Positions 1 through 43,685 of a stretch of DNA of 64,000 nt are shown piece by piece. The position numbers were made by a program, and so were the translations under genes. The first letter of the stretch is position 1; the number at the start of each line of letters is the position of its first letter. The notes under the pieces are model-generated. The model was not told where the DNA came from. It saw only the letters and a program-made list of their open reading frames with translations, and did no database searches. The DNA is taken from IMG/VR virus record IMGVR_UViG_3300032233_001072, positions 1-64,000 of that record; one strand, 5' to 3'. The DNA comes from an uncultured virus (IMG/VR IMGVR_UViG_3300032233_001072). Taxonomy: Duplodnaviria > Heunggongvirae > Uroviricota > Caudoviricetes.

Positions 1-7
1 AGATGGA

Positions 8-1255
8 ATGAAATCTCTAGTTGTTGTACCACCTTCACTTCGCCTCAACTGGCAACGTGAATTCAAAGCGACAGCACCATGGCTCTCAGTCGCCATTGTT
101 ACTGGTAACACCGTGACCGAAGTCCCTAAAGAAGACGTGATCATCATTGGAGACTCCAATGTTGATCAATGGGCGGTCGCTCTTTGCAATGCTCGTTTCG
201 GTTGCCTCATCGTTGATGAAGCACACCGTGCGAAGAATGCAAAAGCGAATCGCACCAAGGGCATCGTCAACATCGCCAAGTCAGTCAATGACAAAGGTTA
301 TGTTGTTTTGCTCTCGGGAACCATCGTCGTTAATCGCCCAGCGGAACTGGTGTCGCCTCTTACCATCATCGGTCGTCTTGACCGTGTGTTCGGTGGGCGC
401 CATTCGTTCTTACAGCGTTACTGCGACCCCATCCACAATGGCTGGGGCTGGGTGTACAACGGCGCCAGCAACACGACTGAATTGAATGCGAACATGCGTG
501 GCACCTGCTACGTACGTCGCAAGAAAATGGACGTGCTAACTGAACTCCCTGCGAAGCGTCGTGCACAAGTGAGTGTGGAAGTGCCTGAGGAGGCACTCAT
601 TAAGTATCGCCACGCTGAAGAGGACTTCCGTGACTTCGTCATCACCAATGGTGGTGCACAGGCATGGGACAAAGCCTCTAAGGCTGAAGTGATCACTCGC
701 ATCAATGCACTACGCCATCTGCTTGGCAACGCCAAAGTCGCCAATGTCGTTGAACATGTTGAGAACTTGCTCGCTGAAGATGAGCAGGTCATCGTGTTCG
801 CTTATCACACTGACGTGATCAACGCCATATGCAAAGCACTCGCTTCGCACAATGTTGTGAAAGTCGGGGGCGGTATGACGGACGAAGCCAAGCAGATCGC
901 TGTTGACTCATTCCAATCGGGTGAGGCAAGAGTGTTCGTGGGTCAGTTTCAAGCGGCTGGTGTGGGTCTCACCCTCACAGCATCCAGCAACGTGGTCATG
1001 GCAGAAATTCCATGGACACCTGCGGATGCAGTGCAGGCAGAAGATCGCTCGCATCGTATTGGAAATTTAGTAGGAACCATGGCATGGTGGCTCACTGTTG
1101 CTGACGAATATCGTCCTACGATTGATGACCGCATGTGGGCATTGCTCAACGCAAAGCACACAACGGTAAGTGCCGTCCTTGACGGCTACGGCGTTGATCT
1201 CGGCGCTGAGGGTGGCATACTTGCTGACCTCATTGACGGGATCATCGGCAACTGA
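8..1255 (+). CDS. SNF2/SMARCAL1-like SF2 helicase, probably 5'-truncated by the window edge
   Basis: VVVPPSLRLNW (Ia), DEAH (II), LSGT (III), AAGVGLTL (V), QAEDRSHRIG (VI). Walker A is missing and the frame is open upstream. Confidence 0.92.
   Translation: MKSLVVVPPSLRLNWQREFKATAPWLSVAIVTGNTVTEVPKEDVIIIGDSNVDQWAVALCNARFGCLIVDEAHRAKNAKANRTKGIVNIAKSVNDKGYVVLLSGTIVVNRPAELVSPLTIIGRLDRVFGGRHSFLQRYCDPIHNGWGWVYNGASNTTELNANMRGTCYVRRKKMDVLTELPAKRRAQVSVEVPEEALIKYRHAEEDFRDFVITNGGAQAWDKASKAEVITRINALRHLLGNAKVANVVEHVENLLAEDEQVIVFAYHTDVINAICKALASHNVVKVGGGMTDEAKQIAVDSFQSGEARVFVGQFQAAGVGLTLTASSNVVMAEIPWTPADAVQAEDRSHRIGNLVGTMAWWLTVADEYRPTIDDRMWALLNAKHTTVSAVLDGYGVDLGAEGGILADLIDGIIGN
580..597 (+). promoter_or_regulatory. 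Intragenic CCT-GAGG-AGG hairpin (AGTGCCT-GAGG-AGGCACT)
   Basis: Perfect 7-bp stem with the same 10-mer core as the three intergenic copies. Confidence 0.5.
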
Positions 1256-1304
1256 TTGCAAGAGCATTCGCTGGCGCAACTGGTTCTGCCGACTACGAAT
1301 GACA

Positions 1305-1338
1305 GGGTGCCCTCTTTCCTCGGGGGGCACCCACTTTC
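1305..1338 (+). terminator. GC-rich hairpin, possible intrinsic terminator
   Basis: GGGTGCCCTCT/GGGGGGCACCC stem followed by ACTTTC (weak U tract). Confidence 0.5.
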
Positions 1339-1349
1339 GCTTGAAGGTG

Positions 1350-1418
1350 CCCTAGGGCATCGGTATCACACCGATGTCGTATGGTGCAATCACGCACTAC
1401 TAGAGACCTGAGGAGGTC
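1350..1418 (+). ncRNA. Structured early leader, degenerate copy 1
   Basis: GGCATCGGT/ACCGATGTC stem, GGTGC/GCACT stem, then GACCT-GAGG-AGGTC over the RBS. Confidence 0.55.
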
Positions 1419-1425
1419 ACAGATC

Positions 1426-2148
1426 ATGTCAACCATTACACCAAAGCAACAAAACTTCTTGCGCTCGCTCTTGATTGAGCGGGCACCATCATTAGAACTT
1501 GATGAGGCTGGGGTTGATTCTTTAATTAAAGAGTTCAACCTTGATCGCTTAACAGCGAAGTCCGCCTCGTTCTGCATTGACCATGTCAAGAAGATCAAAG
1601 TGCTCCGATTGGATTCGGCGCACTTGCCCAGCGATGCTGAACGTGTCATTGCGAACAACTACGCCAAGCCTTGTGCGCTCTGTGGCAACACAGTGCCCAA
1701 GAGCGAAGGCTTCGCAGTGCTCGTCAGTGGTACATGGAGCACCTATCACAAAGAGGGCGAATGCCCAGCCAGTGAGGGCGCTCCAGCGCCAGTGCGAAGC
1801 CTCAACGACATCCTCAAAGATGTCAGCGACGGGTACTTTGCAATCACGTCAAAGGGCACCAATGATCTCGTGTTCTACCGTGTTGCCACTAACAAGGGCT
1901 TTCACAACCCTTCAAAGAAGGGCGAGCGGTACGTTCAACTGATCGTTGGTGGTCATGCCAATGAGACTCTCACTGGCAAGCGGGCACAGGCTTCAGCGAA
2001 TCGTCTTGCTGAACTCAGCCCACTGGAGCAACACGAAGCACAAGCCACATACGGCAAGGAAATCGGCGTATGCGGTAAATGCGGGAAGCATCTCACTGAC
2101 GAAGTATCTCGTGCCTACGGCATGGGTGCTACGTGTCGTGCGATGTAA
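1426..2148 (+). CDS. DUF6011-like Zn-finger protein
   Basis: C-terminal CGKCGKHLTDEVSRAYGMGATC and a central CALC..H..C. Start moved to ATG 1426, after GGAGG. Confidence 0.75.
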   Translation: MSTITPKQQNFLRSLLIERAPSLELDEAGVDSLIKEFNLDRLTAKSASFCIDHVKKIKVLRLDSAHLPSDAERVIANNYAKPCALCGNTVPKSEGFAVLVSGTWSTYHKEGECPASEGAPAPVRSLNDILKDVSDGYFAITSKGTNDLVFYRVATNKGFHNPSKKGERYVQLIVGGHANETLTGKRAQASANRLAELSPLEQHEAQATYGKEIGVCGKCGKHLTDEVSRAYGMGATCRAM

Positions 2149-2157
2149 TGAATCGGG

Positions 2158-2267
2158 GCGTCACGAACTACGGTTCGTGGTGCGCTCAGGGTGCATGGGG
2201 CTTTCGCCTCCTAAGTTTTAGTCCCATGCACTCTGAGGGCACTTGCCCACACGACGCCTGAGGAGGC
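2158..2267 (+). ncRNA. Structured early leader, copy 2 (four hairpins)
   Basis: 11-bp UACG-loop stem; 18-bp CTCAGGG../..CTCTGAG stem; GGGC-ACTT-GCCC; GCCT-GAGG-AGGC. Confidence 0.7.
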
Positions 2268-2274
2268 ACACATC

Positions 2275-2820
2275 ATGAATAAAAACGCAACATTTCAAGA
2301 CATCGTTGACAACAAGCAGGCGCTCTGCGAATACGCAAAGCAACTGCTGTCCAATCCTGAGTTTGCTGAAGACGAAGACTGGTGGGATGCATTGCATCTC
2401 AACGGTTTTACCTTTGACATCAATGGGTACCGTTGTCAGAACGACAAAGGTGCAAAGGTCACGCAAGTAACGGCATATCCAGTTATGTGGGTGAACGATT
2501 ACGACGCTGAAACCAACACCAGCGTTTGGTTGCAACTGGTGGAAGAAAACGTGAAGACAAAGATCGTACAAGAATCCTTTGGTTCTTCTAAAGCCTTCCA
2601 CAAGAAGGGTGGCTTCATTCAAGTCACTGGGCATTACGTAGACGAGACCGAGACCATGGAAAAGGTTTTCGGGATCATCCCTACAGGCTTCACTGGCAAC
2701 ACTGAAGAATTAGAGGGCGATAACTTCGTCCACTTTTGGCTTGAGTGGAATGAAGAGATCAAGATTGGCGAAGAGTACGGCGAGTTCGTCGTGCTAGACG
2801 TTGAACGACCCAAGTGGTAA
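2275..2820 (+). CDS. Hypothetical acidic early protein
   Basis: 181-aa ORF with AGGAGG RBS. Confidence 0.8.
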   Translation: MNKNATFQDIVDNKQALCEYAKQLLSNPEFAEDEDWWDALHLNGFTFDINGYRCQNDKGAKVTQVTAYPVMWVNDYDAETNTSVWLQLVEENVKTKIVQESFGSSKAFHKKGGFIQVTGHYVDETETMEKVFGIIPTGFTGNTEELEGDNFVHFWLEWNEEIKIGEEYGEFVVLDVERPKW

Positions 2821-2833
2821 ATAATCACTACGG

Positions 2834-2927
2834 GTACAACATCCATTTAGGATGTTGTGCTCAGAGTACATAGACGATAGTTTGTGTGCTCTGAGGGCAA
2901 CAGCCCATTTAGAGACCTGAGGAGGTC
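2834..2927 (+). ncRNA. Structured early leader, copy 3 (four hairpins)
   Basis: 11-bp stem; 16-bp CTCAGAG../..CTCTGAG stem; GGGC-AACA-GCCC; GACCT-GAGG-AGGTC. Confidence 0.7.
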
Positions 2928-2929
2928 AT

Positions 2930-3118
2930 ATGAAATACACATTGAGAGTTACCGAGACCGTCAATCACGACTACGAGATTGAGGCTGGGTGCGAGGAAGA
3001 AGCATTGGAGATCTACCAGTCGTACGACGACGAGCAACTAAAGACGCTTGACCTTGACGGCAGTAGTGATTGGGACACACACCCATGGGACATATCAACG
3101 GAGGAAGTAACACAATGA
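2930..3118 (+). CDS. Small acidic protein, DpnD/PcfM-like
   Basis: KYTLRVTETVNHDYEIEAGCEEEA pattern; RBS present. Confidence 0.65.
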   Translation: MKYTLRVTETVNHDYEIEAGCEEEALEIYQSYDDEQLKTLDLDGSSDWDTHPWDISTEEVTQ

Positions 3119-3363
3119 GCACTACACACACGCACTACTACGTCATCTCGTATGACACAGGAACCAATAAATGGACATGGGACAACGAAGCCGAAGAGAT
3201 GCAATTCCCTGAAGGCACCGTTGTCAACCACGACAACAACGAGTGGGGATACGCACTCGTTGATGGCGAAGAATGCATTGATTTTGAAACAGAAACCAAA
3301 TTAGGCGAAGACCTAGAAGTAATCATCAAATATCTAAACGAGGGAATGGACATATTCAAATGA
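3115..3363 (+). CDS. Hypothetical acidic protein
   Basis: ATGA overlap with upstream gene and GGAGG RBS; start reassigned to 3115. Confidence 0.75.
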   Translation: MSTTHTHYYVISYDTGTNKWTWDNEAEEMQFPEGTVVNHDNNEWGYALVDGEECIDFETETKLGEDLEVIIKYLNEGMDIFK

Positions 3364-3659
3364 ACTACATGAACTATCAACAACTACGTGACTACGCACT
3401 CCAGTGTTCACTGGAGCACCACCTGTGCAATGTGCAGGAACTAATGCAAGAAGGAAAGACACCTGACGAGATCCTCGCCATGGTGGAGGAAGGCAACGAC
3501 GCCCTCGTGATCTACGAACCATACGAATGGTGCAGTGAAGAAGAACTCGTAGATGAAATAGAAAGTTTACGAGGCGTCAACGTCTACAACTTCTTGTTCG
3601 TGCTTCGCCAAGTCAACAGCCAAGAATGGCTGGTCAAGTTCAAGGGTGAGGGAGCGTAA
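3360..3659 (+). CDS. Hypothetical acidic protein
   Basis: ATGA-coupled ORF. Confidence 0.75.
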   Translation: MNYMNYQQLRDYALQCSLEHHLCNVQELMQEGKTPDEILAMVEEGNDALVIYEPYEWCSEEELVDEIESLRGVNVYNFLFVLRQVNSQEWLVKFKGEGA

Positions 3660-3661
3660 TC

Positions 3662-3955
3662 ATGAAGAAGGAAGTCTTAGACACCATCGTCATGGGCGAC
3701 ATCATATCCAAGCGATACAAAGGCAAGGTCACTCGCTTTGTCGTGACCGCACGTACCCGTTCAGGCACGCACTTTTGGGTGCGTGACCTGAAATGGGGGC
3801 ACGACGGTTGGTATGACGTAAACCATGACCTCACACGTTCCGCATGGTTTGCTGTGGAGCACACAAACTTAAAGTGGGGAGACTGCACGGGTTGGTATGA
3901 CCTAGACCAAGACCTCACACGATTCACTGAAGACTACGACGAGGAGACAGCATGA
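3662..3955 (+). CDS. Hypothetical protein with an internal tandem duplication
   Basis: LKWG..GWYD...DLTR occurs twice; GGGAG RBS. Confidence 0.75.
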   Translation: MKKEVLDTIVMGDIISKRYKGKVTRFVVTARTRSGTHFWVRDLKWGHDGWYDVNHDLTRSAWFAVEHTNLKWGDCTGWYDLDQDLTRFTEDYDEETA

Positions 3956-4161
3956 GCGTTGAACAAGACCGAACAACAGAACTTGGTAACCAAGCGTTAC
4001 AGGAAGCCCTGTTGGTTATCGGAGGCGTAGACGGGTACAGATTGGAAATGGCAGAACAACGGATTAGCAGAGCCATAGAGATACTGGGGGGAAGTCGTCA
4101 AGAACTTTTCTCAAATGCGGAAAAATACTTATCAGAACTACAACAAAAGGAACCATCATGA
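3952..4161 (+). CDS. Hypothetical protein
   Basis: ATGA overlap, GAGGAG RBS. Confidence 0.7.
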   Translation: MSVEQDRTTELGNQALQEALLVIGGVDGYRLEMAEQRISRAIEILGGSRQELFSNAEKYLSELQQKEPS

Positions 4162-4388
4162 GCACGTACACGTTAACTGCGATACGGGAAGGAGTCGCTG
4201 AAGTCATCGCACTCAGCGCCGACACCCGCACAGAAGCCTACGCATCCGCCATCGGCACCGTCTTTCGGAAGTTTCACGACTCCGATCAAGGACAAGTGCT
4301 CCAGCGGTTGTGGAGGTACGGAGAGATTACATTCCGTGATCCCGACGGCGAAGTCATCCAAGTACTGGAGCAGGGGGTGGAGGCATGA
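4158..4388 (+). CDS. Hypothetical protein
   Basis: ATGA overlap, AAGGA RBS. Confidence 0.7.
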   Translation: MSTYTLTAIREGVAEVIALSADTRTEAYASAIGTVFRKFHDSDQGQVLQRLWRYGEITFRDPDGEVIQVLEQGVEA

Positions 4389-4666
4389 TTGACAACCAAG
4401 ACTCTGACCTTGTCTCTGACTACAGCACACCGCTGTACGACGATGACCAGTACAGCAAGATAGAAGTGCTGTGGGTGAGCGCCCCACAGCCACAAGGGTT
4501 CCTGATCGGATCAGGGATTGATGTGAACACGCAGGAGACCGTTGAGTGGGCTAGTAATAGCCTTGACATGGTCTTCACTGCGGAGATGCTCAACGAGGAA
4601 GACCCCGTGTACTTCCTCGTACCGTATTGGCAAGAAAGATCTAGGAGGAATAATGCGCCCGCATAG
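4385..4666 (+). CDS. Hypothetical acidic protein
   Basis: ATGA overlap, GGAGG RBS. Confidence 0.7.
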   Translation: MIDNQDSDLVSDYSTPLYDDDQYSKIEVLWVSAPQPQGFLIGSGIDVNTQETVEWASNSLDMVFTAEMLNEEDPVYFLVPYWQERSRRNNAPA

Positions 4667-4910
4667 CAGGCTAATAATGTTCATGGGAATACTCACGATT
4701 CTTTTAATCGGAGCCAGTATGCCCAGCGATCCCACACTGGACGGGACACCCGATTGGTCAGACAGAATCTTTATAGGCATTCTGTGCCTCATCTGCTTCT
4801 ACAACATCATTAGGGCACTCTCGGACATGTCGTACAAGACCAAGCCAAACCACAAACCACAAGTTCGTCAGCACTACCACGTTGACAAGCGTCGTAAAAA
4901 ACTTAAGTAG
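4653..4910 (+). CDS. Small two-TM membrane protein
   Basis: AGGAGG before ATG 4653; two hydrophobic segments and a basic tail. Confidence 0.7.
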   Translation: MRPHSRLIMFMGILTILLIGASMPSDPTLDGTPDWSDRIFIGILCLICFYNIIRALSDMSYKTKPNHKPQVRQHYHVDKRRKKLK

Positions 4911-4922
4911 AAGTTGTAAACC

Positions 4923-4962
4923 AAAGTGTTACGGGGATAGATTTATCTCCGTAACACTTTTT
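4923..4962 (+). terminator. 17-bp hairpin with U tract (terminator or processing stem)
   Basis: AAAGTGTTACGGGGATA-GATT-TATCTCCGTAACACTTT-TT. Confidence 0.75.
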
Positions 4963-5000
4963 AATTTAAACCAACCAACCAACCAAGAGAAAGAAACATC

Positions 5001-6008
5001 ATGTCCAAAGAATCCAGCCAGTGGCTCAACCAAAATGTCCTCGTAGGCATGACATCCAAGCGTGGAAACGCATGGCACTACAAGGAGAACGAGCAAGGCT
5101 CAGAGCCAAACCACTACATCGGAGCAATCCCCATTGACGACGTTCGTCGTCGTCTCTTCCACTGGAGCGCCGTAGAAGCACCCGTTTACGTCTACGCTGG
5201 TGGTAACTACCACAACCAAGAAGACCGCAAGGCTGTCGTCCGTGACGACACTTTTGAAACTCTCGGTGTGTTCAAAGATGGTTACTCCATCCACCAGTAC
5301 AGCGAGTGGCTCCTTGACACCGTGTCCAACATCATTGACGACAGCAACCTTCAGATCGGTTCTGCTGGGCTGTTGAAGAATGGTGGAGTCGCATGGGTCT
5401 CCATTGAGATGGAAGAGAACCTCACCGCTGAGGGCTTTGAGTTCCGTCCGCACCTCCTTGCCACCACCAGCCACAACGGCACGTTGGCTACCACCTTCAA
5501 GCGTGTGTGCACCGCTGTGGTGTGTGACAACACGCTCGCCGCAGGACTTGGTGAGCAGGGTCAGGAGCACAAGACACGCCACAGCAAGCACAGTGGCTTC
5601 AAGTTGCAGAACGTCCGTGACGCTCTCGGCATCGTTCACTCGTTCGCAGATGACTTCACCGCTGAGATCCAGCGCCTGTGTGCCATCTCGGTGACCGACT
5701 CTGAATGGGACGCCATCGTCAATCGCATCATCCCAGTGGCTTCAGAAGGCGACTCACGCCCTCAGGCAATCAGTCGTGCTCAGAACAAGCAGGAGGCAAT
5801 CCGCCACCTCTACAAGTACGACGACCGCTCTGCACCTTGGGCAGGCACCGCTCTCGGCGCTCTGCAAGCCTTCAACACCTACAACCACCACCTCACGGGC
5901 AAGGATGAGTCCCGGGTTGAGCGCAATGCGTTCAACGCTCTCACTGGCAAGACCAGCGAGTTTGACCGTTTCGTTCTCAACGTGATTAACGAGGTGGTTT
6001 ACGCATGA
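5001..6008 (+). other. DUF932/DUF945-family phage-plasmid protein
   Basis: AWH, SAGLLKNGGVAW, TSHNGT and AVVCDNTL motifs. Confidence 0.85.
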
Positions 6009-6331
6009 CCGCCCAGCACAGTGGGGAGGGGGCAACCCCTCCCTACACGCTGGATGTTTCGTTACCTGTTGCGAAGTATCTTGAACGCAACAGCGACTGG
6101 AGGGATGGCGCCAAGTGCCGTGGCAACGAGGGCACAATATTCTTTGCTCTCCGAAGTGTTAAGCACCAAGAGGAAGCCATCAGTATGTGCACCGTTTGCG
6201 AAGTACGTCTCCAGTGCTTGAACTTTGCAATACGTAATGAAGAGAAGAATGGCATATGGGGAGGAGTGAACTTCAGAAAGATCAATGAAACCACTCGTAA
6301 AGAACTACTCAATGCAGTCAGCAACCTATAG
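6005..6331 (+). CDS. whiB: WhiB-family transcription factor
   Basis: DWRDGAKC..FF..CTVCEVRLQC..GIWGG (four Cys plus the turn motif). Confidence 0.92.
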   Translation: MTAQHSGEGATPPYTLDVSLPVAKYLERNSDWRDGAKCRGNEGTIFFALRSVKHQEEAISMCTVCEVRLQCLNFAIRNEEKNGIWGGVNFRKINETTRKELLNAVSNL

Positions 6332-7415
6332 AAATATCATTTAAAACTTGTTGAAGAGCGTGGGCACCGATAGAGATATCTCGTGTCCACGCTTTTTCAC
6401 GTAGCGCAGTACCTTCAAGTGCTCGCACCTCAGGATCTTTTAGTTCATTGAAATGCTTGAGCCACTGCTGTCCGTTCTTAGCGAGACGCCCAATACCCCA
6501 TTCCTCTTTCAACTCCCTGTAGGCAGTCCTAGGAGAGCCAATCCAAGGAATTCCTGAGGATGAGTACTCCAGCAACTTTATGTCGCTCTTGGCGTGATTA
6601 AAGGGGGTATCAGACAACGGTGCAATCCCGATGTCCATTGTCAATGATGAGGGGTACAGGGTGCTTTCAACAAGGGGCACTGTAAACACTTCATCCTCAG
6701 TCAATTTAAATAGTTTGTGTACTGCTGGAGAATGAACAGAATGACCGCTGTGCTGGAAAGTAAAGTCACCACTACGTACCAACTGGGGAATGACTCCCCT
6801 CATAAGTTCTAAGTCTCCTGACCTGTGGCTGGTGGAGCCTGCCCAACCAATCCTAGGCACCTCAGCAGTGTGCTCCAGTGGCGTAAACCGAGCCACGTCA
6901 ATGGTGTTTTTAAGCACCACGATGGGGCATGTCACCCACGGTTTAATCCGATCTTGCAGGTATGAAGTGGACACAATGACAAGGTCACTGGCGCCTATCA
7001 CACTCTTGTAATGGTTTACGTTCTCGTTTGGATTCGTCTTGGGGTGCGATGACTTAAAAGCGTCATTCCTTGGGTCAAGCCCCCAGTACCAGTCGTCTAA
7101 ATCATTAATTACAATCTGTCCGTATGCCCGTGCCTTGTAAATGTGTTCAGCAAGGTTGGCATGCATGAGACGCTGTAAAACAACGATAGAGACATCCTCA
7201 AGGTGCTCATTGGCGTCTTTAATAAAGAAATGGTCTTCATGCCATACGAGAGTGCCAGCGACAACTGTGTCGTCTAAGCGTCCAACGTATTGACCGAGTC
7301 GTGCCCAGCCTGAACCACCCCACTGCTCTTTGCCATTGTGGTCTTTAACACGGTCGCCACTAGCAAATCCTATTTTTTGGGTAGTGGAAGAACTTGTGAT
7401 CTTTTTTTCTTGCAT
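6318..7415 (-). CDS. GT-B glycosyltransferase
   Basis: DLDDWYW, RIGWAGS.SH..DL, DIGIAPL...PFN.AKS.IKLLEY. Confidence 0.85.
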   Translation of the reverse strand: MQEKKITSSSTTQKIGFASGDRVKDHNGKEQWGGSGWARLGQYVGRLDDTVVAGTLVWHEDHFFIKDANEHLEDVSIVVLQRLMHANLAEHIYKARAYGQIVINDLDDWYWGLDPRNDAFKSSHPKTNPNENVNHYKSVIGASDLVIVSTSYLQDRIKPWVTCPIVVLKNTIDVARFTPLEHTAEVPRIGWAGSTSHRSGDLELMRGVIPQLVRSGDFTFQHSGHSVHSPAVHKLFKLTEDEVFTVPLVESTLYPSSLTMDIGIAPLSDTPFNHAKSDIKLLEYSSSGIPWIGSPRTAYRELKEEWGIGRLAKNGQQWLKHFNELKDPEVRALEGTALREKAWTRDISIGAHALQQVLNDISIGC

Positions 7416-39256: not shown

Positions 39257-40872
39257 TATAATCCTCCTGCTCTTGCTGGGTTGTTTGCACCGTCGTAGTA
39301 TTCACTGTGGACTGTGGCGTCACTACCCATTGAAATATTGGTAGACCAACTAACTTCTTTATCAATTTTAATTACCTGTAAACAATTTACAGTGCCACCT
39401 TCTGTACCTACAAGTACTGCTGTGTACGTTGTAATGAACTGGTATTTAGATCCATTAGATTTATCTAATATCTCATTTGCAACTTCTTGGCTTTGTTCTA
39501 TTTTAAATTTTGCAGAGTCCCAAGGATCTCGTTTTGTATTATTTAATTGAGATATGTCAAGATCATATGACGCTGATTTAGAAAAGATAGTTTCGTTAAC
39601 ATCATAGGTAACTCCCGCTGGTGGGGTGCCACTGTTTCCTTTATATTTTATTTCTATATTTGCAGTTACTGTTACTTTTGTAATACTGCCTTTGTTGCTT
39701 ATTTCATCTCGTAACGAGTTGGTTGCTAAAAAGCGTACCGTGAAATCTTTTGATCCTTTATCTTTATCAAAAAAGTCTTGAGGACGTACAACAAAGTTTG
39801 CGTTGCTTGGGTTTTCTATTTTTTTAAAAAGGTCAGATCCAAGGGTTCCTAACGCATCTGTTTCTGTGCGACTAGATGTCACCTTATCTTCAATGCTTTT
39901 TTTGTTGCTTTCAAAGGCTTTAGTAAAGAACGTGTCTTTCTTTCCAAACCCCATGTACATAGCCTGCATTTGAATGCCTACTGTTGCTTGTACGGGTACC
40001 ATTGTGGGCGTAAACTTATTAAACATTACAGTTGTAGATGTAACATAACCTTCTACAATAAACAGCGATGAAAGCACTACACGAATTGGTTGGGCAATAA
40101 GAAACGCAGAGTTACCCCAGTTTGCTTGTAAGGCATTTTCAGTTTCTGTACGACTAAAAGACACTGTGGGTGTTTCGGGTGTTTTATCTTCATCATCACT
40201 TGTTGTGTCTTTTTTTGCTTCTGCGTCTCTGTAAGCCGCACCAGTTTCTGCCCGATCAACCATTGCTTGAATAAGTTGTGAGTTAAGACCTTGTCCAATT
40301 AGTTCATCAAAAACAATCAAGTCTGCAAGAACACCAATGTCTGTAACGCTGTATTGCCCTAACGTGCTATTGCCATTTGTAGGGAGGATTGCAGGAATGT
40401 TTGATGATATTGTTGTTTGCCCGTTTGCAGATATAAAAGGGGTGCCTACATTTGTTGCAGTTCCTGAAGAGTATGTACCAGAATATACTTCTGCTTCTCG
40501 GTTAAACAATAATTCAAAAGCAAAGTTAGAATCACCCGGAACAGGTTGTGTCATTTGGGCAGGGTCCATGTTCATCCATAGTTGGATGTCATTTCGGGCA
40601 GCCACCGAACGGGTAATACTGTCGGGATTAAACTGAAAATGTAAACGACGGCGACTAAGTGTTTCATATTCACTGCCAAGTAACTCACTCATCATACGAA
40701 TGTAACCACGTTGAATAGGTGTGCTTTTACCTGTTACTGCATTACGTAAGTTATTTGAAGGGTATAAAAATGGAGGGTTATCAGTTGCCGCACTATTTTG
40801 AGATAAAGTACTGCTAAATGGTTCAAAAGAATCAAGGTTATAAAACTGATTGGTTGCGTAACGCTCTGCCAT
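39256..40872 (-). CDS. Tail tube initiator-like protein
   Basis: FQFNPDSI, FELLFNRE, F...MVP; follows the tape measure. Confidence 0.65.
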   Translation of the reverse strand: MAERYATNQFYNLDSFEPFSSTLSQNSAATDNPPFLYPSNNLRNAVTGKSTPIQRGYIRMMSELLGSEYETLSRRRLHFQFNPDSITRSVAARNDIQLWMNMDPAQMTQPVPGDSNFAFELLFNREAEVYSGTYSSGTATNVGTPFISANGQTTISSNIPAILPTNGNSTLGQYSVTDIGVLADLIVFDELIGQGLNSQLIQAMVDRAETGAAYRDAEAKKDTTSDDEDKTPETPTVSFSRTETENALQANWGNSAFLIAQPIRVVLSSLFIVEGYVTSTTVMFNKFTPTMVPVQATVGIQMQAMYMGFGKKDTFFTKAFESNKKSIEDKVTSSRTETDALGTLGSDLFKKIENPSNANFVVRPQDFFDKDKGSKDFTVRFLATNSLRDEISNKGSITKVTVTANIEIKYKGNSGTPPAGVTYDVNETIFSKSASYDLDISQLNNTKRDPWDSAKFKIEQSQEVANEILDKSNGSKYQFITTYTAVLVGTEGGTVNCLQVIKIDKEVSWSTNISMGSDATVHSEYYDGANNPARAGGL

Positions 40873-43685
40873 TACATGCTCCTCATTGCTGCAATTTTAA
40901 TTTCTTTAACCATCATATTGGATACTTCTTTAGCGGCACGTTGAGCATCAGCAGAGTTATTACCTGTTGATTGGATATAGATAGTAGGGGCAATTGTAAT
41001 GTTGCTCCCGCCTTCAATACGTACAGATCCGCCTGAACGTACGGGAGTAGAGGTAGGGGCACCGTCGCCTGTCTTAATGTTAGGCCACTTGATTGCATTT
41101 TTGGCTACTGATTCAAAACCACCAATACCGGATGCTGGTTTAAACTTTCCTGTTTTAGGATCGTTGTACCCATCAAATGATGAGCGTTCTGCAATTTTAA
41201 TCTGTTCTTCTGGCGTTGCTTTTTCTGCCCAGCGAGCAAATTCCCTACCGCCATAGAAATCCCATACTTTATTGTGCATGGCTAAACCGCCACGGAACAC
41301 TTTGGAATCGTTAACAAACTTCCAGTTTTTCTTAGTTTCTACTTGAGCAATGGCATCCCAGTCTGCTCGTGTAAAACGACGTTTAGGAATTTGGTAAGAA
41401 CCCCAAACTTTATGATTTCTTGTAGTCATTCCCGACGAAGGTACTTTTTGAGATGAATACCCACTATCTGAGGCTTTTGTGTTACTTGATATTGCTACCG
41501 AAGAAACAGATTTAGTTCTACCCATCCCTCCACCTTGGGTCCCCAACAAATTTTGATTTGCCTGCCTAGAGGCAGCAATGCTTTCTGCAATAGACATTTG
41601 CCCGTAAGACTCTACGGATTGTTTTGCAATGCCTCTAGCACTAGATGAACGGTCTCCTTGCACATCAGGGTTTCCGTTGAACTTTGATTCGGGGTCATAT
41701 TGGCTACCCCCGGCGATTGTGCCCCAAGGAGAGTTTTTCTTTTCGTATTCACTACGACCTTTAGGAAGTTCAGCAGGCTGTACGTGCCAAGGTTCATCAT
41801 TGACATTTGCAAAAGTTTGCAATCCGTATTTAGCCGCATTCTTTTGAACCCAGTCAAGGTCACCTGTGAGGTCAGCCGCTAAACCAATTTCGTGCATAGA
41901 CATTCCGGGAGGAGCAGCATCTGGACCGCTGTGCTTTTTCCAAAATGAACCGTTCCAGTATGTACCCGTATCTTCGGTAGTACGGCTGTAGCGACTTAAG
42001 AACATACTGCGTTGTTCGGTACTTGAGCGGTATCCATTGCCGATACCCACGTTAGGGTTATCAGCCATCATCTTAAGCAAGCGTTCTTTAAACTTAGGAT
42101 TTAGTTTAGAAAACGTATCTCGTTTTTCTAACTGTGCAAATTTACCTTTGCTTGAACTGCCCGAAACGGTGGGAGATTTAGAATTACTTTTATCAGCAGT
42201 ACCGTCTCCAATTAATTTAGTGCCAGCACCAACTGCTATTCCACCACCAAGTACTCCGCCTACACCTCCAGTAAGTGCTGTAAATGCGGCACCCCCTCCT
42301 ATTAAGCCAAGACCTAATAGGTTTTTTCCAATTTTCATAAATGGGTTGTTTCGGCTACTGATGCGAGCACCAATGATTCCTGACAACTTGTCTTCTAACA
42401 TAGTAAACGCACTAATTAATTTTTGTGTATTGCGTTCAAGAGCGGCGTAGTTGTCTGCTTGGCGACGGTAGAACATTTCGTCACGTTGGTTACGGCGCAC
42501 ATCTGTAACCTCTGCTTCCATAGCAAAGTTCTTGTTAATGCCCATTGTTTTACGTTGCGACGCTTTACTAGGGTCATACATCCCTTGTTTTCCGCCACTC
42601 TTCTTTTGGAACTGTATGTTTTCTTGGGCGTACTGCAAAACGATGTCTTGCATGTCTTCAGGGACACCCATAGACGTAAGGCGTGCACGGGTTACTGACC
42701 CTTGTTGCATCCCAGAGTTAACCATTCTTTCGTTGGTAAGCCCTGCGCTTCTAACAATTTGTTGGGTAACTTCCATCGGGTTACGTTGTTTGCCACCAAT
42801 ACCGTAGATGCCCGTGCCCATTGTCATGGTCATACGATTGTTAATAGTGGGGGATGCCAGCGTGCTAATCATTTTTGTAATATCTTGAGTGGTGTATGAG
42901 AACCCACTAGCAACACGAAGAGCCTCAACACCGGGCATCATTACCTTGGATTGCAAACCTGTTTGTGCTTGAAGACCAAGAAGCGTATTGATACCGCCAG
43001 CACCTAATAGTCCACCAGCCAATGGTGCTCTAAATTGTTTAGCGTACTGGTTATTAGTAATACCTTGGGTTTGCTGATACAGCATTCCCATACGGTCAGC
43101 GGCTAGTGCTGGGGCATAACCTGCATCGGTACGTTTATCAATCATTTCAATAGGCATGCCAAGCGCACCAACTATTTGTTTTCCAAGGCCCATTCCCATG
43201 CCGCTTAATGGGTTCCCGCCACCCATTGCACCCCCGGCTTTACCCATTAAACCACTCATTGCACCACCGCCACCTGCGGCAGATGTACCAGTAGGCATAG
43301 AGCCACGGAAGTTTTTAAAGAAGCCACTTGCCGATGAAGGGCTAACACCCATAGCAGCAGTTGAGGCTGGGGCACCTCCACTGCCAGAAACCATGTCTTG
43401 AGATTTAACAACGGCGTTGCTTACAGCACTGGCAGTGCTTGTACTGGTTGATGGGGAAGTATTTGCTGTAGAAACAGTGCCAAGAGCATTAGCAAGTTTG
43501 TTTACTTTGGCAATGGTCTTATCAAGGTTGTCGTGCATCCACTTGATATCGGCTTTGATACTGCTAAAGCCTTTAACAAGTTTCTCCATTTGAGACGTGT
43601 CAACAGAGAACTTGGAGCGGACGTCAGCCATTGAACCGCCACCAGCGAGGTTGGGTTCTTTGCTTCCTTCACCAAAAATTGCCAT
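40872..43685 (-). CDS. Tape measure protein with M15 peptidase and Rpf-like domains
   Basis: GYRS..EQ, PPG.S.HE.GLAAD, EPWH; WDAIAQVE..NW..GGL..W..YGG..ATPEEQI.IAER. Confidence 0.85.
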   Translation of the reverse strand: MAIFGEGSKEPNLAGGGSMADVRSKFSVDTSQMEKLVKGFSSIKADIKWMHDNLDKTIAKVNKLANALGTVSTANTSPSTSTSTASAVSNAVVKSQDMVSGSGGAPASTAAMGVSPSSASGFFKNFRGSMPTGTSAAGGGGAMSGLMGKAGGAMGGGNPLSGMGMGLGKQIVGALGMPIEMIDKRTDAGYAPALAADRMGMLYQQTQGITNNQYAKQFRAPLAGGLLGAGGINTLLGLQAQTGLQSKVMMPGVEALRVASGFSYTTQDITKMISTLASPTINNRMTMTMGTGIYGIGGKQRNPMEVTQQIVRSAGLTNERMVNSGMQQGSVTRARLTSMGVPEDMQDIVLQYAQENIQFQKKSGGKQGMYDPSKASQRKTMGINKNFAMEAEVTDVRRNQRDEMFYRRQADNYAALERNTQKLISAFTMLEDKLSGIIGARISSRNNPFMKIGKNLLGLGLIGGGAAFTALTGGVGGVLGGGIAVGAGTKLIGDGTADKSNSKSPTVSGSSSKGKFAQLEKRDTFSKLNPKFKERLLKMMADNPNVGIGNGYRSSTEQRSMFLSRYSRTTEDTGTYWNGSFWKKHSGPDAAPPGMSMHEIGLAADLTGDLDWVQKNAAKYGLQTFANVNDEPWHVQPAELPKGRSEYEKKNSPWGTIAGGSQYDPESKFNGNPDVQGDRSSSARGIAKQSVESYGQMSIAESIAASRQANQNLLGTQGGGMGRTKSVSSVAISSNTKASDSGYSSQKVPSSGMTTRNHKVWGSYQIPKRRFTRADWDAIAQVETKKNWKFVNDSKVFRGGLAMHNKVWDFYGGREFARWAEKATPEEQIKIAERSSFDGYNDPKTGKFKPASGIGGFESVAKNAIKWPNIKTGDGAPTSTPVRSGGSVRIEGGSNITIAPTIYIQSTGNNSADAQRAAKEVSNMMVKEIKIAAMRSM

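Follow-up and report, generated by a model that had tools for sequence, protein, structure and literature searches.

The stretch analysed here (the window) comprises bases 1-64000 of a virus record of 94,948 base pairs (bp) in IMG/VR, IMGVR_UViG_3300032233_001072 (genome label G000). On its plus strand, a gene for an SNF2-type helicase runs up to 1255 and is followed by open reading frames (ORFs) that start at 1426, 2275 and 2930. The spacers in front of these three ORFs (1256-1425, 2149-2274 and 2821-2929) all end in the same ribosome-site motif, CCTGAGGAGG. The spacers before 2275 and 2930 are filled by two copies, A2 and A3, of an element composed, in the plus-strand RNA, of a hairpin P1, a long hairpin P2, a hairpin P3 and a hairpin P4 at the ribosome-binding site (RBS). 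The spacer before 1426 (leader IG1) holds a remnant.

Four-hairpin leaders between plus-strand genes

The features of the three leaders are the following.

2158..2183, plus strand: P1 hairpin of A2, 11 bp with 2 G-U pairs and a loop of 4 nucleotides (nt)
2185..2237, plus strand: long P2 hairpin of A2, an inverted repeat, 18 bp in the minimum-free-energy fold
2238..2247, plus strand: short P3 hairpin of A2, whose 5' strand can instead pair with the 3' end of P1
2256..2267, plus strand: RBS hairpin P4 of A2, a 3-bp stem around the Shine-Dalgarno loop; ATG at 2275
2834..2860, plus strand: P1 hairpin of A3, 11 bp with a 5-nt loop, unrelated in sequence to P1 of A2
2861..2894, plus strand: P2 hairpin of A3, 15 bp
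2895..2906, plus strand: P3 hairpin of A3, 4 bp with a 4-nt loop
2914..2927, plus strand: RBS hairpin P4 of A3, 5-bp stem; ATG at 2930
1305..1332, plus strand: hairpin of IG1, 11 bp, just after the helicase gene, weakly terminator-like
1347..1387, plus strand: P2-like remnant of IG1, an imperfect long hairpin that the covariance model does not match
1405..1418, plus strand: RBS hairpin P4 of IG1, identical to P4 of A3; ATG at 1426

An earlier reading of the same letters (the original prediction) held that 2158-2267 and 2834-2927 share one architecture, and folding bears this out. The plus-strand fold of the A2 leader has an energy of -67.3 kcal/mol (z-score -6.71) and that of the A3 leader -54.0 kcal/mol (z-score -8.55), in each case with 0 of 200 shuffles as good; the minus strands fold more weakly (z-scores -5.69 and -4.37, respectively). 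The helix lengths given at that time are correct for P1, which has 11 bp in both copies, and for P2 of A2, whereas P2 of A3 has 15 bp and not 16-18. P3 measures 3-4 bp across the two copies, and its reported conservation together with the closing motif of P2 is confirmed by exact repeats at 2231 and 2889. P1, P2 and P3 abut, with 0-2 variable nt between the hairpins. P1 of A2 begins 10 nt after the stop codon at 2146-2148. P2 of A2 can gain four pairs (2180-2183 with 2239-2242) past one G.G mismatch; the minimum-free-energy structure takes this extended form, which is 4.4 kcal/mol lower.

A degenerate third copy had been proposed at 1350-1418. This holds for the RBS segment, where 19 nt at 1401-1419 are 100% identical to 2910-2928, and for the P2-like hairpin, but P1 and P3 are absent from the IG1 leader and the covariance model gives no match there. 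The IG1 fold (1290-1428) has a z-score of -4.70, and at the place of the hairpin at 1305-1332 the relatives carry a counterpart of different sequence.

Exact matches to CCTGAGGAGG lie at 1407, 2257 and 2916, with one more within the helicase gene; allowing one mismatch gives 8 matches against 2.5 expected, a number reached by 0 of 100 shuffles. Nearly every plus-strand gene of the close relatives begins with the same RBS motif. The RBS hairpin covaries: the 278 sites comprise 41 distinct contexts, of which 41/41 have a Watson-Crick pair at the first variable position and 32/41 are paired at the second.

The leaders belong to a plus-strand module that runs from about 90,640 to the end of the record and then into the window. 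It contains 13 leaders with the RBS motif, namely four copies of the element, one remnant (the first spacer) and eight type II hammerheads. Two clear copies lie outside the window, at genome positions 90545-90619 and 94561-94647, where they were found with the covariance model; A2 is matched at 2156-2248 with 66.0 bits and A3 at 2834-2906 with 63.7 bits. All four copies have the same architecture, with P1 and P2 sequences that are unrelated. The elements sit between ORFs on the same strand, the A2 and A3 leaders have no promoter-like site, and a terminator-like hairpin lies downstream at 4923-4960. A promoter search over 1-6500 returned three promoter-like sites, none of them in a leader. In A2 and A3 neither P1, the full P2 nor P3 was called terminator-like, and no U-tract follows P3; the one terminator-like call, at 2197-2210, falls inside P2 of A2. 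On these grounds the element is ruled out as an intrinsic terminator, for which the U-tract is missing, and as a promoter cassette, for which the promoter-like site is missing.

Covariation, strand selection and two alternative folds

Related loci were collected from IMG/VR by a search with the helicase, which gave 80 loci with identities of 66-99% for L035-L065, 52% for L066 and at most 36% for the rest. As the original prediction had proposed, a covariance model was built and searched in phage metagenome contigs. It was made from 17 leaders, was given the inner P1 and core P2 pairs only, and was run against a search space of 929,905 nt. The best 150 matches are all on the plus strand, score between 55.3 and 80.9 bits and are confined to G000 and L035-L065, while the top minus-strand match reaches only 34.2 bits; L066-L114 gave no matches. 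These 150 matches represent 68 distinct sequences, all from the related clade, whose alignment was used for the covariation analysis.

The P1 motif was found in at least 119 stretches. The 80 listed loci, unrelated viral loci carrying this motif, served as a negative control (668,128 nt) and contain no match to the model. Of 43 further loci, the only ones with matches are four contigs that belong to the same clade, and an exact-pattern scan for the P2/P3 junction returned 29 loci, with the architecture in only two, the close relatives L006 and L018. In these searches the model detects the element in no place other than intercistronic leaders of this phage and about 35 related IMG/VR contigs. 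At the gathering threshold, Rfam 15 has no match for it in the window or in the rest of the genome, and in 10 related loci nothing except one hammerhead. With E-values up to 10, the region 1200-3000 gave five chance-level matches, among them no ribozyme and no bacterial cis-regulator. The leaders have no DNA match in cultured phages. The earlier statement that the element was not recognised as a described family agrees with these results: no description was found in Rfam 15 or in the literature searched.

P1 and the interior of P2 had been described as differing in sequence yet pairing fully, and the alignment supports this. In the three-hairpin fold 94.8% of cells are paired and 18 of 28 pairs have changed on both sides, with 0 of 500 shuffles reaching any of the measures; when the partners are slid, pairing falls to 29-48%. 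The core helices contain 240 G-U cells against 7 A-C cells, that is, only the plus-strand transcript pairs well, which indicates, together with the strand bias of the model scores, that selection acts on the plus-strand RNA. The proposed cis-acting element at the RNA level is upheld by this asymmetry, which also rules out a DNA palindrome.

A second fold fits the alignment equally well. Extended P2 arises when the 3' end of P1 and the 5' strand of P3 pair with each other, giving a 20-pair helix with 96.2% pairing; over this fold 94.4% of cells are paired, 19 of 28 pairs have changed on both sides, and again 0 of 500 shuffles reach any measure. Alignment column 32, in the exchange region, pairs with both alternative partners in 68/68 sequences. 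P2 alone has 14-18 bp and can be extended to 20-24 bp at the cost of P1 and P3, and the extended helix measures 19-24 bp in 44/68 distinct copies. Constrained folding of the 68 sequences gives mean energies of -47.2 kcal/mol for the three-hairpin fold and -47.5 kcal/mol for extended P2, with the three-hairpin fold lower in 37/68, the extended fold lower in 24/68 and the two equal in 7/68. An independent RNAalifold prediction returned the 20-pair extended helix with a short P1, in which 17 of 24 pairs have changed on both sides. All conserved positions of the alignment lie in helices; the loops vary, and no unpaired nucleotide is conserved.

Exchange with hammerheads and motif C

Eight of the sibling leaders are predicted type II hammerhead ribozymes. 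They lie outside the window at genome positions 90,870-94,120 (L005 11,870-15,120), one per intercistronic spacer, and each is followed by the same RBS hairpin. These neighbouring leaders have a complete core and three covarying stems, with stem II open. Counting the relatives, the full core and paired stems are present in 17/17 hammerheads (8 in G000, 7 in L035 and 2 in L066); all 17 also have a GUC cleavage site, and the loop of stem I is only 3 nt long. The Rfam gathering threshold missed the G000 hammerheads. In E-value mode, five of them match RF02276 with 28.2-36.4 bits against a cut-off of 37 (E 9e-5 to 0.012), and one L066 hammerhead passes the cut-off with 48.1 bits. Within the close set, hammerheads occur in G000 and L035 only, and the relatives have motif C, described below, at those places. 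The element itself is not a hammerhead: it has no core motifs outside the RBS, and no Hammerhead match was obtained in 1200-3000 at E-values up to 10.

Two further observations concern these ribozymes. The variable position N7 of the core changes jointly with stem II (L005 and L035), with the result that in 13/15 copies the core and the bases that follow it form a perfect palindromic hairpin, an alternative structure that would sequester the predicted catalytic core. In two hammerhead spacers the stop codon of the upstream gene overlaps or immediately adjoins the stem II strand, which hints at control by translation.

Motif C is a three-way junction of about 40 nt with an invariant, T-loop-like loop of 6 nt. 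Examples are the following.

L045, 1200-1250: motif C
L041, 325-373: motif C
L242, 3088-3136: motif C in other clades

Scanned for as an exact pattern, motif C matched 95 times across 67 loci, with both tested stems fully paired in 90 of the matches. The 50 distinct sequences have 97.7% of cells paired, 9 of 14 pairs changed on both sides and 18 invariant columns. Beyond this clade, motif C stands ahead of genes in uncultured phages whose ribosome-site motif is different. Neither Rfam nor cultured phages yielded a match to it. In contrast to the three-hairpin element, it has conserved unpaired nucleotides; of the two, motif C is the stronger candidate for a new ribozyme or for a processing signal that resembles a tRNA.

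The three structures replace one another ahead of orthologous genes. We sorted 268 leader-gene pairs by regular expressions into 123 element, 76 motif C, 15 hammerhead and 54 unclassified leaders. The hammerhead count leaves aside four false positives in L038, L043, L045 and L046, where the RBS was taken for a core, and many of the unclassified leaders look by eye like three-hairpin variants. Among 19 clusters of downstream proteins with at least four members, 7 have more than one leader class. An orthologous gene of 172-176 amino acids, for example, follows a hammerhead in G000 and L035, motif C in L047 and the element in L060. That three unrelated RNA structures are swapped ahead of the same genes is direct comparative evidence, from sequence, for a common job. 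The distance from the upstream stop codon to the start of the element is 0-9 nt in 41/65 distinct copies, and 8-27 nt separate its end from the RBS core.

The niche and the orthologous downstream genes that the element has in common with hammerheads could point to a new class of self-cleaving ribozyme, and twister was recognised by just such an association with hammerheads, according to excerpts of PMC6765202. We consider this very improbable. The hairpins abut, the loops vary, and the 68-sequence alignment has no conserved unpaired or junction nucleotides; no ribozyme family matched at E-values up to 10. Self-cleavage, for which the original prediction had suggested an assay, finds no footing in the alignment, and the element was rejected as a self-cleaving ribozyme for the same lack of conserved unpaired and junction nucleotides.

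Leaders also mark places of gene exchange. Compared with L035, a relative of 95-99% identity, 7 of 10 breakpoints in gene content lie in leaders or the following start codon (90962/90873, 91565, 92029, 92906, 93145, 93650 and 2941/2930), and three lie away from them (93871, 3101-3129 and 3957-4146). The breakpoints fit recombination between repeated leaders as a side effect, and in this sense the recombination handle of the original prediction is retained. One could go further and regard the element as primarily a DNA-level recombination site or cruciform that shuffles gene cassettes: the breakpoints comprise insertions, deletions and replacements, leader classes are swapped before orthologous genes, and the PeSL cassettes of T4-type phages, as described in excerpts of PMC2839356, offer a precedent. 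We give this very little credence. The G-U excess and the far lower minus-strand scores single out the transcript, and recombination at any repeat gives the same breakpoints as a by-product.

Proposed processing of the transcript and comparison with known systems

The reading that we prefer, with a probability of roughly 0.5, is that the element punctuates the mRNA and is cut by the RNase III of the host, P1 and P3 being left as protective hairpins at the ends. It would act as RNA, as an intercistronic punctuation module of a polycistronic plus-strand, probably early, phage transcript. The long P2 helix would be the target of a double-strand-specific endonuclease, most likely the RNase III of the host, and RNase III length would be attained by the 20-24 bp of extended P2 or, comparably, by P1, P2 and P3 stacked end to end. 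After the cut, P1 would form a 3' hairpin on the upstream mRNA, and P3 with the RBS hairpin would stand at the 5' end of the downstream mRNA, so that both ends would be protected and a standard ribosome site presented. The surviving P1 and P3 would mirror hammerhead stems III and I after their cut. Cleavage, the nuclease, the fate of the ends and the co-transcription of the genes are steps that we infer.

We favour processing because the sibling spacers hold hammerheads, and a hammerhead cut there would also leave end hairpins. For clustered hammerheads that flank phage genes, the proposed role is to cut long transcripts into mRNAs of single genes, according to excerpts of PMC3088659. Excerpts of PMC1540722 state that E. 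coli RNase III substrates typically comprise two helical turns, for which coaxial stacks can substitute, and that single RNase III cuts leave protective 3' hairpins; the element can provide about two turns of helix or a coaxial stack. Moreover, unrelated P1 and P2 sequences within the same architecture fit a structure-reading enzyme better than a sequence-specific binder. The processing role put forward in the original prediction has thus been strengthened by the sibling hammerheads and by a P2 that reaches RNase III length, with the cut itself still a predicted step.

Several points weigh against RNase III. The segments that exchange partners repeat one another, and for this reason covariation does not discriminate between the three-hairpin and the extended-P2 fold; the uninterrupted helix is only 14-18 bp long in A3 and in 24/68 copies. 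The niche shared with a ribozyme shows a common role and not RNase III cleavage. The phage encodes no RNase III, and the candidate nuclease would be that of the host. Sequence is conserved at many helix positions, such as two P1 pairs in 68/68, and this could reflect recent copying or a specific binder.

The last point leads to the reading that an RNA-binding protein of the phage or the host, such as a translational repressor, an antiterminator or a packaging-like factor, binds here and recognises P1/P2 stem sequences. Besides the invariant P1 pairs, a U-G wobble is kept in 59/68 distinct copies and several P2 positions are near-invariant, and the repeats before genes of Cluster K phages were likewise proposed as possible binding sites in the excerpted text of PMC3203893. 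A binder of this kind nevertheless seems unlikely, as the architecture is the same in copies A1 and A3 of this genome although their P1 sequences are quite different, the loops are variable, and copying among leaders could explain the conservation.

A tentative alternative, which we regard as possible, is an uncut structural insulator, whose hairpins would isolate each cistron with no endonucleolytic step. They would keep distant sequences from pairing with the RBS, hinder 3' exonucleases and the loading of Rho on the untranslated spacer, and, through the RBS hairpin, control the start of translation. This would agree with the placement of all nucleotides in stable helices with short loops and with the covariation of the RBS hairpin. 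With the element so close behind the stop codon in 41/65 copies, terminating ribosomes would melt P1, and the cleavage in the RNase III reading is itself something that we infer. On the other hand, the same slots hold hammerheads, whose only known activity is cleavage, and an insulator would need neither a helix reaching two turns nor two near-isoenergetic folds.

A broader reading, rather doubtful in our view, joins these elements into an operon with three unrelated, exchangeable RNA punctuation modules, in which the element is a two-state switch and motif C the third module. The switch would be either three hairpins or a 20-24-bp duplex, and a ribosome terminating 0-9 nt upstream would bias it, coupling upstream translation to mRNA cutting; motif C would be a self-cleaving ribozyme of a new class, or else a tRNA-like signal read by RNase P or RNase Z.

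From gene content alone, the host is probably an actinobacterium, because the phage has a WhiB-family transcription factor gene (6005-6330, plus strand), a protein of 936 amino acids (40872-43685, minus strand) with Rpf-like transglycosylase and VanY domains, and a DUF6011 domain, and because the nearest DNA polymerases, at 35% identity, are those of Streptomyces phages. A helicase search of prokaryote genomes found relatives only at or below 31% identity and identified no host. Neither an RNase III gene nor an RtcB gene was found in the phage genome. Behind the ORF at 2930 lies a block of tightly packed small ORFs, and the six at 3115-4666, after the gene behind leader A3, follow one another with stop and start codons that overlap or abut, and none has a leader; only some genes of the module are thus preceded by a structured leader. 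A 17-bp hairpin at 4923-4960 with a T-rich tail, after the ORFs behind A3 and before a DUF932 gene (5001-6008), is likely an intrinsic terminator.

Some features of the record stand apart from the leaders. Within the ORF at 3662-3955, a 32-nt direct repeat (3806-3837 and 3890-3921, 91% identical) gives an internal repeat in the 97-amino-acid protein. The divergent gene modules are separated by about 1 kb (genome ~89,480-90,530) that lies before the first leader and is free of long ORFs. Several short motifs recur within this stretch, alongside small palindromes, and it may be a promoter or origin region. The record starts and ends within the helicase gene (genome 94,678-94,948; window 1-11). 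At a simple end-to-start join the N-terminal helicase frame meets a stop at window 9-11, and the helicase frame of the window is 2-1255; the record ends therefore do not join seamlessly.

The early genes of coliphage T7 are separated by RNase III processing signals, R0.3 to R1.3, and other phages have similar sites. Like these sites, the element consists of hairpins in the spacers of a polycistronic phage transcript with a helix of about two turns, and the upstream mRNA would keep a 3' hairpin, which is described as a general property of RNase III cuts in excerpts of PMC1540722 and here would follow from the predicted cleavage. Unlike the T7 sites, it shows no sequence relation to them and no T7-type internal loop, its host is probably actinobacterial, and it is a repeated module of three abutting hairpins plus an RBS hairpin with two alternative pairings. 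With the element, RNase III punctuation in the manner of T7 would reach uncultured actinobacterial phages, and for operon design it is a source of compact natural insulators.

PeSL, the promoter-early stem-loop cassette of T4-type phages described in excerpts of PMC2839356 and PMC4122927, combines a promoter with a terminator-like stem-loop in repeated intergenic motifs that bound shuffled cassettes. The element resembles it as a set of repeated intergenic stem-loops bounding shuffled gene cassettes, and was rejected as a PeSL because the leaders have no promoter-like site and no U-tract after P3.

The nearest described genomic feature, as far as the excerpted text of Pope et al. 2011 (PMC3203893) extends, is the start-associated sequence (SAS) of Cluster K mycobacteriophages with its extended form (ESAS). 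The SAS is a conserved asymmetric RBS-containing motif directly before many actinophage start codons; its consensus has 13 nt, and the extended form adds 17-bp imperfect inverted repeats. About half of the sites have such an upstream inverted repeat, with a variable spacer; they precede different gene families, and the function is given there as unknown. The authors of the ESAS found, in the same excerpts, little support for an mRNA hairpin. The element shares the RBS motif directly before many actinophage start codons. In contrast to SAS and ESAS, CCTGAGGAGG and its flanks differ from the published consensus, compensatory changes are abundant, and the element has three hairpins with hammerheads as alternates. 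It was rejected as an SAS or ESAS because the consensus is not matched and the leaders have no DNA similarity to cultured phages.

The leader swaps bear on a long-standing question, the purpose of bacterial and phage hammerheads. The element and motif C add two uncatalogued RNA motifs to the hammerhead niche; excerpts of PMC6765202 recount that the clue of a shared niche exposed twister as a ribozyme and prompted a search for further classes. Unlike a hammerhead, the element has no core (CUGANGA, GAAA, NUH) and no conserved junction. Like the clustered prophage hammerheads described in excerpts of Perreault et al. 2011 (PMC3088659), it occupies the same niche and has the same proposed role, and here both alternate in one operon.

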